Notes under the pieces: generated by a model
Told to the model about the DNA's origin: nothing
Database searches by the model: none
What the model saw: the letters and a program-made list of their open reading frames with translations, nothing else
Shown here: positions 52,205 through 58,275 of the stretch, piece after piece
How positions within the stretch are numbered: position 1 is the stretch's first letter
Layout: each line of letters begins with the position of its first letter
Source: Escherichia coli
GTDB taxonomy: Bacteria; Pseudomonadota; Gammaproteobacteria; Enterobacterales; Enterobacteriaceae
Reading direction: 5' to 3' (one strand)
Assembly (NCBI RefSeq): GCF_003018255.1
Contig: NZ_CP027440.1
DNA: 64,000 bases
Position numbers and translations under genes: made by a program

Positions 52205-53383
52205 TCAACGCGCCACCCACCCGAGGGTGCGCTGCGCCAGCACATCGCGTGCTGGGGTGAATAATTCCATTGCCATCAGCCCGATGTTGCGCCCGACAAC
52301 CAGCGGCCCCCAACGGTTGGCAAAAAGATGTACAAGGCTGTCCGTGACGCCGATGGTTGCTTCGCGATCGCGCTGTCGACGCTGCTGATAACGGCACAAT
52401 ACGCCGTAATCACCCATGTCTTCTCCGCGCTCCTGCGCCTGAGTCAGGGTTTCCGCAAGGCTCATGACATCTCGCATACCGAGGTTGAACCCTTGCCCGG
52501 CAATCGGGTGCAGAGTTTGCGCCGCATTGCCCACCAGCACGGTACGATGGGTAATAGGTCTGGCGGCGCGGGTTAACGCCAGCGGATAAGCACTGCGTTT
52601 ACCAGCGTGGGTAATTTTCCCAAGTCGCCAACCAAAGGCCGACTGGAGTTCACGGCAAAACTTCTCGTCGCTCCAAGACAGTACCTCTTCGCGCCGTTCC
52701 AGTGGATGACACCAGACCAGCGAACAGCGTCCGTCAGACATCGGCAACATCGCCAGCGGGCCATATTGTGTAAAGCGTTCAAAAGCGCGCCCTTCATGCG
52801 CAACGGAAGTCGCAACGTTGGCAATCACAGCCAGTTGTTCGTAAGGCTCCTGCTGCCAGTCAACGCCGCACACGGTGGCTAACGCTGAATGGGTGCCATC
52901 AGCGGCTACCAGCACGCAGCCCGTCAGCGTCTCGCCACTCTCCAGCGTCACTTCAACGTGACTCTGAGTACGGGCAACGTTAGCCACGCGATCAGGACAA
53001 TGCAGCGTTACGCCAGGTGCTTTGCGCAGCAATGCAAACAGCCGTTGCCCGACATTATGCAATTCGACAACCTGCCCCAGCGCCGCCAGTTGGTAATCTT
53101 CTGCGGCGAGGGTGACGAATCCGGCATGACCACGATCGCTGACATGCACGGTAGTGATGGCGGTTGCGCAATCCGCCAGAGATTGCCAGACGCCGATGCG
53201 CGCCAGTTGCTGACAGGTACCCGCCGCCAGCGCTATCGCTCGTCCATCAAAGCCCGGATGAGCATGTGACTCTGGCGCAGTCGCTTCAATCAAATGTACC
53301 GGCAGCGCCCCGTGACTTAACCGGGAAATAGCCAGCGCCAGCGTCGCGCCCGCCATGCCGCCACCGACGATGATTACGCTCAT
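52205..53383 (-). CDS. ubiH: 2-octaprenyl-6-methoxyphenol hydroxylase (FAD-dependent)
   Basis: 392 aa; VIIVGGGMAGATLA. Confidence 0.9.
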   Translation of the reverse strand: MSVIIVGGGMAGATLALAISRLSHGALPVHLIEATAPESHAHPGFDGRAIALAAGTCQQLARIGVWQSLADCATAITTVHVSDRGHAGFVTLAAEDYQLAALGQVVELHNVGQRLFALLRKAPGVTLHCPDRVANVARTQSHVEVTLESGETLTGCVLVAADGTHSALATVCGVDWQQEPYEQLAVIANVATSVAHEGRAFERFTQYGPLAMLPMSDGRCSLVWCHPLERREEVLSWSDEKFCRELQSAFGWRLGKITHAGKRSAYPLALTRAARPITHRTVLVGNAAQTLHPIAGQGFNLGMRDVMSLAETLTQAQERGEDMGDYGVLCRYQQRRQRDREATIGVTDSLVHLFANRWGPLVVGRNIGLMAMELFTPARDVLAQRTLGWVAR

Positions 53384-54705
53384 TGCTTTCTCGCAGCAGC
53401 CATCAACGCTTCGATTTCTTCCGGCTTTTTCACCACGCTGGCGGTGAGGTTTTCGTTGCAGGTTTCGGTAATCACAATGTCGTCTTCAATACGAATGCCG
53501 ATACCGCGATATTGTTCTGGCACATCCGCATCCGGCGCGATATACAGACCAGGCTCTACGGTCAGTACCATCCCCGGTTCCAGAATGCGCGAGCGATCCT
53601 GACCATAAACGCCAACGTCATGGACATCCAGTCCTAACCAGTGGCTAAGGCCATGCATAAAGAAAGGACGATGGGCGTTCTGAGCGATCAGTTCATCAAC
53701 ATCACCCTTCAGGATGCCGAGTTTTACCAGGCCGCTAACCATGATACGCACCACTTCACCAGTGACTTCCTGCATGGAAGTTCCCGGACGATACAGGCGC
53801 AGGCTGGTTTCAAGAGACTCCAGCACAATGTCATAGATTTCACGCTGAGCCTGAGTGAATTTGCCGTTGACCGGGAAGGTGCGGGTAATGTCGCCAGCGT
53901 AACCTTTGTATTCACAACCCGCGTCAATCAACACCAGATCACCGTCACGCAGTTCACACTCGTTTTCGGTGTAGTGCAAAATGCAGCCGTTTTCACCGCT
54001 GCCAACAATGGTGTTATAGGAAGGGTAACGCGCACCGTGGCGGTTAAACTCGTGGTGAATTTCGCCTTCCAGATGGTACTCGAACATCCCCGGACGGCAT
54101 TTTTCCATCGCCCGGGTATGCGCCAGTGCGGTGATTTCACCCGCGCGGCGAAGTACGGCAATCTCTTCTGGTGATTTGAACAGGCGCATTTCATGAACAA
54201 CAGGACGCCAGTCGATCATCGTAGCCGGGGCAGTGAGATTCTGTCGCGAGCCTTTACGCAGCTTTTCCAGCGCGCTGTTCACGATTTCATCAGCATAGGT
54301 ATATTCGCCCTGAGCGTGATAAACCACATCCAGACCATTAAGCAGTTGATAAAGTTGCTGATTGATTTCGCTGAATGCCAGTGCGCGGTCAACGCCCAGT
54401 TTCTCTGGCGCGGCATCCTGGCCTAAGCGACGACCAAACCAGATCTCTGCCGTCAGGTCGCGAACGCGGTTAAACAAAACGCTGTGGTTATGAGTGTCGT
54501 CGCTTTTAATCAGCACCAGCACCGCTTCCGGTTCGTTAAAGCCGGTGAAGTACCAGAAGTCACTGTTCTGACGATAGGGGTATTCGCTGTCGGCGCTACG
54601 TGTTACTTCTGGTGCAGCAAAAATCAGCGCGGCGCTGCCGGGTTGCATTTGCTCCACCAGGGCCTGACGGCGACGCTGAAACTCTTGCCGGGATATCTCA
54701 CTCAT
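53380..54705 (-). CDS. pepP: Xaa-Pro aminopeptidase (M24)
   Basis: Track ORF extends to 54918 with a Lys/Arg-rich spurious extension; start trimmed to MSEISRQEF (441 aa). Confidence 0.9.
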   Translation of the reverse strand: MSEISRQEFQRRRQALVEQMQPGSAALIFAAPEVTRSADSEYPYRQNSDFWYFTGFNEPEAVLVLIKSDDTHNHSVLFNRVRDLTAEIWFGRRLGQDAAPEKLGVDRALAFSEINQQLYQLLNGLDVVYHAQGEYTYADEIVNSALEKLRKGSRQNLTAPATMIDWRPVVHEMRLFKSPEEIAVLRRAGEITALAHTRAMEKCRPGMFEYHLEGEIHHEFNRHGARYPSYNTIVGSGENGCILHYTENECELRDGDLVLIDAGCEYKGYAGDITRTFPVNGKFTQAQREIYDIVLESLETSLRLYRPGTSMQEVTGEVVRIMVSGLVKLGILKGDVDELIAQNAHRPFFMHGLSHWLGLDVHDVGVYGQDRSRILEPGMVLTVEPGLYIAPDADVPEQYRGIGIRIEDDIVITETCNENLTASVVKKPEEIEALMAAARKQ

Positions 54706-54730
54706 AACACTCTCCTTACGTTTTTTGTTT

Positions 54731-55309
54731 TTAGTGTAGAGTCGGTTTTTGTACTTCTGGCGCGGTCGGTTGCGGATGAGTAAAGGTGTCGTGGCATAAC
54801 AGCGCGGCAACACGAACGTATTCGATGATCTCTTCAAGCGACATTTCAAGCTCTTCCTGATCTTCGTCTTCGTCGTAGCCCAGCTGCGCGATGTTACGCA
54901 GATCGTCGATGGCTTCACCGGTTTCTCCGGTCACTTTGTCCAGCTTCGGTTGCGTAACGCCAAGACCAAGCAGGAAGTGATTGACCCAACCTGCCAGCGC
55001 ATCAGCCCGATCGAAAACGCTGACATCATCGCCATCAGGCAGATAAAGCTGAAAAAGGAAGCCGTCATCCTGCAGGGCATCGCTGGTGGCAGAGTGCATT
55101 TTACGCAGTGCCTGTGCCAGCTCATGACCGAAAGCCATGCCTTCGTTCGTCAGGTCGTGAAGTAGCGGCAGCCATGAGCTGTCATCGTTACCGCCACATA
55201 TCATCCCGCTGATTAAACCATGCATCTCAGCAGGGGTCAGACCCGTCCCTTGTTGGTTCAGATACTGGTTCATTTCGTTGTAACCAGGCATTTCGTTCTG
55301 TATAGACAT
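54731..55309 (-). CDS. ygfB: UPF0149-family protein YgfB
   Basis: 192 aa from [10 protein letters not shown]. Confidence 0.85.
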
Positions 55310-55410
55310 AAGCATTCGTCGTCAAAGGGAGGAATATTCATGATATGCTACCACTTTGGGCCCTGGTGGACCAGAAAAGGGCTTGTCTCTTCTCATCAGG
55401 GTAGCTATAG

Positions 55411-55806
<396 letters not shown>

Positions 55807-55847
55807 CACTTTTCGGTTTACTGTGGTAGAGTAACCGTGAAGACAAA

Positions 55848-56031
55848 ATTTCTCTGAGATGTTCGCAAGCGGGCCAGTCCCCTGAGCCGATATTTCATAC
55901 CACAAGAATGTGGCGCTCCGCGGTTGGTGAGCATGCTCGGTCCGTCCGAGAAGCCTTAAAACTGCGACGACACATTCACCTTGAACCAAGGGTTCAAGGG
56001 TTACAGCCTGCGGCGGCATCTCGGAGATTCC
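55848..56031 (+). ncRNA. ssrS: 6S RNA (RNA polymerase sigma-70 holoenzyme regulator)
   Basis: Matches my recollection of E. coli 6S RNA from ATTTCTCTGAGATGTTCGCAAGCGGGCCAG... to ...CATCTCGGAGATTCCCT; lies between zapA and fau; 3' end approximate to a few nt. Confidence 0.85.
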
Positions 56032-56105
56032 CTTCTTATCTGGCACCAGCCATGACGCAACTACCAGAACTCCCACTGACATTATCCCGACAAGAAATCC
56101 GCAAA

Positions 56106-56654
56106 ATGATTCGGCAACGTCGTCGTGCGTTAACGCCGGAACAACAGCAGGAAATGGGTCAACAAGCCGCTACCCGGATGATGACTTATCCCCCGGTGGT
56201 GATGGCACATACGGTCGCTGTATTCCTCTCTTTTGATGGCGAACTCGACACCCTGCCACTCATAGAACAACTCTGGCGCGCCGGTAAGCGCGTATATCTT
56301 CCAGTTTTGCATCCCTTCAGTGCCGGTAATTTGCTGTTCCTGAATTACCATCCGCAAAGCGAACTGGTGATGAACAGGTTGAAGATCCATGAGCCCAAAC
56401 TGGATGTGCGTGACGTGCTACCCCTTTCCCGATTAGACGTGTTGATCACACCGCTGGTCGCCTTTGATGAGTACGGTCAGCGCCTGGGAATGGGCGGTGG
56501 TTTTTATGATCGGACCTTACAAAACTGGCAGCACTATAAAATGCAACCGGTGGGTTATGCGCATGATTGTCAGTTGGTGGAAAAACTCCCCGTTGAAGAG
56601 TGGGATATCCCTCTTCCTGCGGTGGTTACACCGTCGAAAGTCTGGGAGTGGTGA
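56106..56654 (+). CDS. fau: 5-formyltetrahydrofolate cyclo-ligase
   Basis: Track ORF 55908..56654 runs through ssrS; start trimmed to MIRQRRRALTPEQ (182 aa). Confidence 0.85.
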   Translation: MIRQRRRALTPEQQQEMGQQAATRMMTYPPVVMAHTVAVFLSFDGELDTLPLIEQLWRAGKRVYLPVLHPFSAGNLLFLNYHPQSELVMNRLKIHEPKLDVRDVLPLSRLDVLITPLVAFDEYGQRLGMGGGFYDRTLQNWQHYKMQPVGYAHDCQLVEKLPVEEWDIPLPAVVTPSKVWEW

Positions 56655-56713
56655 GGGCGACACACCTGCATCGCCCTGATTGACATCGTTGATTCTTTAA
56701 CCTAATTTAGTGA

Positions 56714-56852
56714 GTAAGGGTAAGGGAGGATGACTCCTCCCCTGAGACTGACTGTTAATAAGCTGGGAAACTTATGAGTAACAGTACAATCAGTATGATG
56801 ACAAGTCGCATCATAACCCTTCTCCTTCAAGCCCTCGCTTCGGTGAGGGCTT
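56714..56852 (+). ncRNA. sibC: SibC antisense sRNA (type I antitoxin), approximate ends
   Basis: Fully overlaps ibsC on the opposite strand; candidate -35 TTGACA (56680-56685) and -10 TAATTT (56702-56707); 3' hairpin GCCCTC-gcttcggtg-AGGGCTTT at 56829-56852; length about 139 nt fits Sib RNAs. Confidence 0.55.
56754..56813 (-). CDS. ibsC: Ibs-family type I toxin, 19-aa hydrophobic peptide
   Basis: Minus-strand ORF ATGATGCGACTTGTCATCATACTGATTGTACTGTTACTCATAAGTTTCCCAGCTTATTAA = MMRLVIILIVLLLISFPAY; below the ORF-track size cutoff. Confidence 0.7.
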
Positions 56853-56995
56853 TACCGTTACAGCCCCATGCTGCCCTGCCATCGTAAATCCCCATTAAAT
56901 AAACACAACGCATTGATCTGACTTTGATTTATTTTCTGGAGCAGACTCGCAAAGTAGAATGCGCAATGCGGCAACGGTGTGGAGAAGGGATAAAA

Positions 56996-57029
56996 AAACG
57001 GGCAAGTCAGTGACCTGCCCGTTGATTTT
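56996..57029 (-). terminator. intrinsic terminator downstream of serA (T tracts on both sides)
   Basis: AACGGGCA-agtcagtgacc-TGCCCGTT hairpin flanked by AAAAAAA (minus-strand T run) and GATTTTCA. Confidence 0.55.
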
Positions 57030-57042
57030 CAGATAAGGGGAT

Positions 57043-58275
57043 TTAGTACAGCAGACGGGCGCGAATGGTACCCGGAATAGCTTTCATTGCCTGCAGCGCT
57101 TTTTCGGCAACGTCTTCGTCGGCTTCAATATCAATAACTACATAACCCATCTGGGCGGAAGTTTGCAGATATTGCGCGGCGATGTTGACGCCCTGCTCGG
57201 CAAAAATTTTGTTGAGCGCAGTCAGCACACCCGGACGGTTTTCGTGGATGTGCATCAGACGACGACCACCGTGCAGTGGCAGCGAGACTTCCGGGAAGTT
57301 CACCGCAGAGAGCGTTGAACCATTATCAGAATACTTGATCAATTTACCCGCAACTTCCAGACCGATATTCTCCTGCGCTTCCTGAGTCGAACCACCAATG
57401 TGTGGCGTCAGAAGGACATTGTCGAATTCACACAGCGGAGAGGTAAATGGATCGCTATTGGTCGCCGGTTCCGTCGGGAATACGTCGATTGCCGCCCCTG
57501 CCAGATGTTTGCTCGCCAGCGCGTCACACAGCGCTGGAATATCCACCACAGTACCGCGCGAAGCATTAATCAGCAGCGAGCCGGGCTTCATTAGCGAAAT
57601 CTCTTTCGCGCCCATCATATTTTTGGTGGACGGATTCTCTGGTACATGCAGACTCACCACATCGCTCATATTCAGCAGGTCAGAAAGATGCTGTACCTGA
57701 GTGGCGTTGCCCAGCGGCAGTTTGTTTTCAATATCATAAAAGTAAACATACATTCCCAGCGATTCAGCCAGAATGCCCAATTGCGTACCAATATGACCGT
57801 AGCCGATGATACCCAGCTTTTTGCCGCGCGCTTCAAAAGAACCCGCCGCCAGTTTGTTCCACACGCCACGATGCGCTTTAGCATTGGCTTCCGGCACGCC
57901 GCGCAATAGCAGCAGCAGTTCGCCAATCACCAGCTCCGCAACAGAGCGCGTATTTGAGAACGGTGCGTTAAATACCGGGATCCCGCGTTTTGCCGCCGCA
58001 TCCAGATCAACCTGGTTTGTTCCGATACAGAAACAGCCAATAGCGACCAGTTTTTCTGCGGCGTTGATCACGTCTTCAGTCAGATGGGTACGGGATCGCA
58101 GGCCGATGAAGTGGGCATCGCGGATGGATTCTTTTAATTGTTCATCATCCAGCGCGCCTTTGTGAAATTCGATGTTGGTGTAACCCGCTGCACGAAGGCT
58201 TTCCAGCGCCTTTTGGTGCACGCCTTCTACCAGCAGAAACTTAATCTTGTCTTTCTCCAGCGATACCTTTGCCAT
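57043..58275 (-). CDS. serA: D-3-phosphoglycerate dehydrogenase
   Basis: 410 aa; NAD-binding GIIGYGHIGTQLG; C-terminal ACT-like regulatory region. Confidence 0.95.
   Translation of the reverse strand: MAKVSLEKDKIKFLLVEGVHQKALESLRAAGYTNIEFHKGALDDEQLKESIRDAHFIGLRSRTHLTEDVINAAEKLVAIGCFCIGTNQVDLDAAAKRGIPVFNAPFSNTRSVAELVIGELLLLLRGVPEANAKAHRGVWNKLAAGSFEARGKKLGIIGYGHIGTQLGILAESLGMYVYFYDIENKLPLGNATQVQHLSDLLNMSDVVSLHVPENPSTKNMMGAKEISLMKPGSLLINASRGTVVDIPALCDALASKHLAGAAIDVFPTEPATNSDPFTSPLCEFDNVLLTPHIGGSTQEAQENIGLEVAGKLIKYSDNGSTLSAVNFPEVSLPLHGGRRLMHIHENRPGVLTALNKIFAEQGVNIAAQYLQTSAQMGYVVIDIEADEDVAEKALQAMKAIPGTIRARLLY

Follow-up and report, generated by a model that had tools for sequence, protein, structure and literature searches.

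In Escherichia coli, ssrS, the gene for 6S RNA, is transcribed from tandem promoters (P1 and P2), and its transcripts are processed by RNase E/G (PMC12152304). Its co-transcription with fau (ygfA), the gene directly downstream, which the first-pass annotation of the DNA described here had taken as known, is backed by the literature (PMC2848244), although Rho-dependent termination within fau puts an end to most ssrS transcripts (PMC3299989). [quoted passage not shown]

We analysed a window of 64,000 nucleotides from E. coli (NCBI RefSeq assembly GCF_003018255.1, contig NZ_CP027440.1); the window is the whole stretch, and all positions are counted from its first letter. The locus under study, at 55848-56654, has the textbook arrangement, in the order zapA-ssrS-fau(ygfA)-sibC/ibsC-serA, and the RefSeq genes across the region are pepP, ygfB, zapA, ssrS, fau, ibsC and serA. 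The 1.5 kb around ssrS-fau are 100% identical to several E. coli chromosomes, the region is found in 5425 of 5426 complete E. coli genomes, and positions 55687-56253 are wholly identical to K-12 MG1655. These are known genes in a known place, and nothing about them is novel. We assign a probability of roughly 0.85 to the reading that the interval holds two real genes in one transcription unit and no 248-aa protein; the features on which this reading is built are collected in Table 1.

Table 1. Features of the ssrS-fau locus in the window
Feature	Position	Strand	Evidence and remarks
zapA CDS, 109 aa	55477..55806	+	Pfam PF05164 ZapA, E 8.7e-21; RefSeq zapA on identical DNA; upstream neighbour, carries the likely distal ssrS promoter
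Distal promoter-like element in zapA: TTGCAA 55588-55593, 17-nt spacer, TAGAGT 55611-55616	55588..55616	+	By eye and by conservation
Proximal promoter P1: ATGACA 55803-55808, 18-nt spacer, extended -10 TGnTAGAGT 55824-55832	55803..55832	+	Promoter scan
ssrS, 6S RNA, 184 nt	55848..56031	+	RF00013; identity to K-12; RefSeq ncRNA; fold
Non-coding 5' part of the 248-aa ORF	55908..56051	+	Frame unconserved outside Escherichia; no family model; no Shine-Dalgarno
C-rich, G-poor tract, candidate rut region	56020..56117	+	C/G 2.0-2.25
Spacer between 6S 3' end and conserved fau ATG, 20 nt	56032..56051	+	Length variable among genera
fau (ygfA), 5-formyltetrahydrofolate cyclo-ligase, 200 aa	56052..56654	+	PGAP; conservation; family models; best-supported CDS
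Internal Met19 codon	56106..56108	+	Start in K-12 RefSeq b2912 and UniProt (182-aa form)

The biological weight of the result is small, given that ssrS-fau is among the best-studied non-coding RNA loci and that this 6S copy is identical to the K-12 one. Its added value is modest and lies in two points: the K-12/UniProt start of fau is probably 18 codons too far downstream, and a protein that is an artefact of reading across the 6S gene has already entered public protein sets.

The 6S RNA gene and its neighbours

An Rfam scan of the whole window gave three matches above the gathering scores, the strongest of which is RF00013 (6S/SsrS; 139.8 bits against a gathering score of 46.4, E = 2.2e-28, by covariance-model search). 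Model positions 1-187 of 187 are aligned, without truncation, to exactly the interval that the first-pass annotation had assigned to 6S RNA, and the ssrS gene of K-12 MG1655 matches it at all 184 of 184 nucleotides; the covariance-model search and the alignment to ssrS, both of which that annotation had proposed as checks, thus bear out the assignment.

The minimum free energy (MFE) of the RNA is -80.5 kcal/mol (z = -5.6), and none of 200 shuffled sequences folds as well. As expected, the MFE fold is a long interrupted hairpin with a central bubble; the RF00013 alignment tracks the consensus structure line with one non-standard pair, and the MFE fold gives the same architecture independently. 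The long closing stem, the large central bubble and the terminal stem-loop that define an open-promoter mimic are all present, and every property of 6S RNA that can be tested in silico was found at this interval. RNA positions 25-44, GGCCAGUCCCCUGAGCCGAU, are the pRNA template in the central bubble (complement AUCGGCUCAGGGGACUGGCC); in E. coli, pRNA synthesis initiates at U44 of 6S, and the template is read from there. Because the window copy is 100% identical to the characterised K-12 RNA (PMC3299989), it is expected to bind the sigma-70 RNA polymerase holoenzyme and to accumulate in stationary phase. There it would mimic an open promoter and sequester the holoenzyme, to be released when the polymerase uses it as the template for a short product RNA.

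Of the 17 loci tested, 15 have a 6S match immediately upstream of fau. No match at the gathering threshold was found within 1.5 kb upstream of fau in the remaining two, those of Superficieibacter electus (L031) and Colwellia demingiae (L034). The sequence 5' of fau in Superficieibacter electus is unrelated to 6S; either the 6S-fau linkage is broken in this genome or the 6S gene lies further away.

Several other features were recorded in the window. Directly 3' of fau lies the SibC antitoxin RNA (RF00113, 136.5 bits) at 56680-56830 (+); the Rfam SIB_RNA match opens with TTGACA at 56680, and a small GC hairpin (GGGCGA..TCGCCC, 56655-56676) stands between the fau stop codon and this hexamer. The type I toxin gene ibsC (56755-56814, -; product MMRLVIILIVLLLISFPAY) is on the strand opposite to SibC. 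A terminator-like hairpin at 56997-57023 (-), with 12 pairs followed by a T run, lies just downstream of serA and is presumably the serA terminator. At the other end of the window, a tRNA-Gly with anticodon CCC occupies positions 53-126 (-; Rfam 71.6 bits, and ARAGORN).

The translation start of fau

The protein encoded downstream of ssrS exceeds the curated cut-offs of all three models that describe its family (PF01812, 160.6 bits against 27; TIGR02727, 177 against 84.9; NF007661, 443.6 against 343). With a match to an NCBIfam model at the equivalog level, Fau is predicted to convert 5-formyl-THF to 5,10-methenyl-THF in an ATP-dependent reaction. Three start coordinates for this one gene coexist in the databases. 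The first-pass annotation had placed the real start at the 56106 ATG, which is in frame and opens 182 codons plus a stop ending at 56654 (protein MIRQRRRAL...); this choice agrees with K-12 RefSeq (b2912 / NP_417387.3) and with UniProt 5FCL_ECOLI (P0AC28), but the comparative evidence favours 56052. NCBI PGAP, run on identical DNA, likewise calls the 200-aa form (MTQLPELPLTLSRQEIRKMIRQ...). The N-terminal peptide is (M)TQLPELPLTLSR in the 200-aa form and MIRQRR in the 182-aa form.

We compared the start region among 32 Enterobacteriaceae sequences (the window and L003-L033). The 56052 ATG is present in 32 of 32. The codon at 56106 is ATG in 13 (six Escherichia and seven Citrobacter or Pseudocitrobacter) and CTG, ATA, CTA, CAG, CAT, CTC, CAC, TTA or ACC in the other 19. 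The 54 nt between the two ATGs evolve as coding sequence: for codon positions 1/2/3, pairwise nucleotide diversity averages 0.24/0.16/0.45 over codons 2-18 and 0.21/0.09/0.47 over codons 12-18 (gene body, 0.14/0.07/0.51), highest at position 3 and lowest at position 2, and the sole indel within 56052-56105 is of 6 nt and keeps the frame. Residues 2-11 of the 200-aa protein are poorly conserved, and the Escherichia lineage L003 carries three non-synonymous changes there.

A search of 1.84 billion representatives returned 13,611 relatives at E <= 1e-10, and conservation was scored on an alignment of 131 full-length representatives with 37-79% identity. The residue at position 17 of the 200-aa form (56100-56102) is Arg in 129 of 129 representatives, which places it among the approximately 16 most conserved positions, and position 13 is R or K in 106 of 128. 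In the structure-based alignment, the counterparts of R13 and R17 are K10 and R14 in human MTHFS and K3 and R7 in the Aquifex enzyme; an Arg stands opposite R17 in each of the four structures that are aligned that far. The motif [KR]-x-x-[LI]-R is therefore present in the 200-aa form (R13, I16, R17) and absent from the 182-aa form, which starts at M19. The invariant Arg reportedly contacts ATP in the MTHFS structures and has a catalytic role there; a literature search on the residue roles of human K10 and R14 returned nothing usable. The column that holds Met19 is mostly Q, T, H or K, with Met outside the eight commonest residues of the 131 representatives, and 129 of 131 have at least 6 residues N-terminal to this column. 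As a separate observation, from a protein cluster, a 200-aa Fau with at least 90% identity to the E. coli protein carries the label Staphylococcus aureus (WP_113608265.1), probably through assembly contamination.

Since R17 is invariant and the only in-frame start codons upstream of it are 55908, which lies in the 6S gene, and 56052, we place the fau start at 56052. The fau CDS is, very probably, 56052..56654, and E. coli itself would be expected to initiate there. The 56106 ATG reads, on this comparison, as an internal methionine codon specific to Escherichia and a few relatives, and the 182-aa annotation of K-12 and UniProt is probably too short by 18 residues, having lost the invariant N-terminal Arg of its family.

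The alternative that fau is translated from 56106, with 56032-56105 as an untranslated leader carrying a Rho loading site, appears unlikely. In its favour, many database entries give the 182-aa form, the ATG has an A-rich context (AAAATG) that does not speak against it, and Rho would have free access to a C-rich leader that is not translated; but such a start would delete both R13 and R17 from the protein, it requires an ATG that 19 of the 32 Enterobacteriaceae lack and a Met that the wider family does not conserve, and it leaves unexplained both the coding pattern of the preceding 54 nt and the fact that the Pfam and TIGRFAM domain models (PF01812 and TIGR02727) begin at R13, six residues upstream of Met19. 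We found no reason for the K-12 choice of this start, which might rest on data outside this analysis. Trotochaud and Wassarman reportedly described, in 2004, a ygfA start-codon mutant (M2).

Use of both ATGs in Escherichia, with the 200-aa enzyme made alongside a 182-aa isoform truncated at its N-terminus, seems improbable to us as well. All six Escherichia sequences have both codons, and no Shine-Dalgarno sequence was found at any of the three candidate ATGs (best duplex -0.7 to -1.5 kcal/mol, compared with -7.3 for zapA), so the initiation signals fail to separate 56052 from 56106. In-frame internal initiation near the 5' ends of other E. coli genes is documented in a Ribo-RET preprint (bioRxiv 10.1101/520783), the text of which does not mention ygfA/fau; our literature search found no paper joining ygfA with ribosome profiling. 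Against a functional second form, the internal ATG is not conserved, and the short protein, being without the invariant Arg, would likely be inactive. For expressing or modelling E. coli Fau, the 200-aa form starting at 56052 is advisable, or else both forms.

The open reading frame across the 6S RNA

The third start in circulation is that of a 248-aa ORF (55908..56654), which is present in the window as listed. Its ATG is nucleotide 61 of the 6S RNA, and before it reaches the conserved fau ATG the ORF runs through 124 nt of ssrS and the 20 nt of the spacer. In the ORF listing, an ORF opens at whichever ATG, GTG or TTG comes first behind a stop codon. From 55830 onward no stop codon interrupts the fau frame, and the mechanical ORF therefore starts inside 6S; this frame is free of stops as far as 56654 in all Escherichia sequences. 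Among 26 loci of other genera, the distance from 6S to fau varies between roughly 16 and about 125 nt, with length differences not divisible by 3, and relative to fau the 3' half of the 6S gene consequently falls into three different frames (RHIHLEPRVQGL.., TKGSRVTACGG.., NCDDTFTLNQGF..). Stop codons shut the upstream extension of the fau frame at differing points among these genera, with the 6S sequence nearly invariant, and only in Escherichia does the 55908 ATG stand in the fau frame. In Raoultella terrigena (L024, at ~1326-1449) and Klebsiella spallanzanii (L026, at ~1345-1446), about 100-125 nt are inserted between the 3' end of 6S and the ATG of fau; outside these two loci the distance is 16-25 nt.

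The family models agree with this picture. PF01812 and TIGR02727 match residues 61-242 only of the 248-aa translation and NF007661 residues 52-248 only, no Pfam, TIGRFAM or NCBIfam model was found over residues 1-51, and RefSeq annotates the ncRNA ssrS, not a CDS, over the 5' part. In its frame, its start codon and its substitution pattern among relatives, 55908-56051 does not behave as coding sequence. It is non-coding, and the 248-aa ORF is a read-through artefact, exactly as the first-pass annotation had judged. That it represents a genuine longer protein (MWRSAVGEHAR...) with an N-terminus encoded in the 6S gene is extremely improbable: the frame is open in all Escherichia sequences and an identical protein occurs in public collections, but the extension is frame-shifted or closed by stops in all other genera, has neither a family model nor a RefSeq annotation, and would start without a Shine-Dalgarno sequence at an ATG inside a tightly folded, abundant RNA, and 61 codons in a row without a stop, given three frames to choose from, are nothing out of the ordinary.

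The identical 248-aa protein in public collections comes from automatic calls on Logan/ENA contigs. Longest-ORF gene callers run fau across 6S in this way, and with the artefact already in public sets, RNA genes should be masked before ORFs are called. A minus-strand ORF of 108 aa (55756..56082) was also considered as a gene across 6S and rejected, the interval being a nearly invariant structured RNA. The listing over-extends two further genes of the window in the same mechanical way: pepP appears as a 512-aa ORF with a GTG start (53380-54918, -) that overlaps ygfB, the real protein beginning MSEISRQEF..., and ygfB is listed at 194 aa (54731-55315, -), two codons longer than the RefSeq CDS (54731-55309).

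Transcription, Rho termination and comparison with known systems

P1 was the only sigma-70-like site found by the promoter scan on both strands of 55400-57100 (9 of 12 matches, with TG before the -10); its -10 hexamer (TAGAGT, 55827-55832) is conserved across genera, and its predicted start, near 55839, lies approximately 9 nt before the mature 6S 5' end. The distal element, at 8 of 12 matches, falls below the threshold of the scan. Both its hexamers stay unchanged across 31 sequences of about 10 genera, synonymous codon positions of zapA included, which suggests a double constraint, as zapA coding sequence and as distal ssrS promoter. This element is likely P2 of ssrS; transcription from it would start near 55624, some 224 nt before the 6S 5' end. 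Kim and Lee are said to have placed the ssrS transcription starts at -9 and -224 in 2004, and Lee et al. reportedly dealt with the two ssrS promoters in 2013; the two elements in the window fit the tandem P1/P2 arrangement. For a separate fau promoter there is no room in the 20-nt spacer.

The course of expression at the locus would be as follows, with co-transcription, the P1/P2 promoters, RNase E/G processing and Rho termination taken from the literature. The ssrS gene would be transcribed from P1 and from the distal promoter inside zapA, and transcription would run on into fau. Rho would stop most transcripts within the first ~100 nt after 6S, at a conserved C-rich tract, and their 3' ends would be trimmed back to give mature 6S; the transcripts that read through would serve as the fau mRNA, translated from the 56052 ATG 20 nt past the 6S 3' end in the absence of a recognisable Shine-Dalgarno sequence. 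Rho termination sites were reportedly treated by Chae et al. in 2011. The tract at 56020-56117 has the highest C/G ratio in a scan of 55840-56657, and over 16 loci the median C/G is 2.39 in the region from -20 to +60 around the conserved ATG compared with 1.0 in the rest of the CDS; this tract is a candidate Rho loading (rut) site.

A broader proposal can be made from these observations, namely that the 182-aa annotation is truncated and that the C-rich first ~60 nt of the true CDS would act as the Rho loading site, coupling 6S maturation to fau translation. Taken as a whole, we regard it as a tentative idea with the odds against it, and the part that links translation with Rho is, on its own, speculative. 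If it were true, inefficient initiation at 56052 would set the balance between Rho termination (6S 3' ends) and read-through (Fau), and the maturation of 6S RNA would be coupled to the translation of a folate-salvage enzyme.

Of the known systems, E. coli K-12 is the nearest. K-12 ssrS (b2911) and the window gene agree in sequence, in their flanking genes (zapA upstream, fau downstream), in their promoter elements and in the pRNA template region; the K-12 record is 183 nt long and ends one nucleotide earlier than the 184 nt given by Rfam and PGAP. K-12 fau/ygfA (b2912) is the same gene as that in the window, from which it differs at 8 nucleotide positions of the CDS (SNPs), and its annotated start is the equivalent of 56106 (182 aa), as opposed to the 56052 (200 aa) given by PGAP and by the comparative evidence. 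At the protein level the solved MTHFS structures are those of human (3HXT/3HY3), B. anthracis (2JCB), B. subtilis YqgN (1YDM) and A. aeolicus (1SOU), and no structure of E. coli Fau was found. The 200-aa form of Fau aligns to these structures from residue 12-14 to the C-terminus (E 7e-23 to 7e-16) and has the N-terminal [KR]-x-x-[LI]-R helix motif in common with them; identity is low, and E. coli Fau has an extra, variable N-terminal tail of approximately 11 residues. The gene arrangement, finally, is of the type described for Coxiella burnetii, in which 6S lies effectively within the 5' leader of the cyclo-ligase gene, as it does in the window (PMC4064990).
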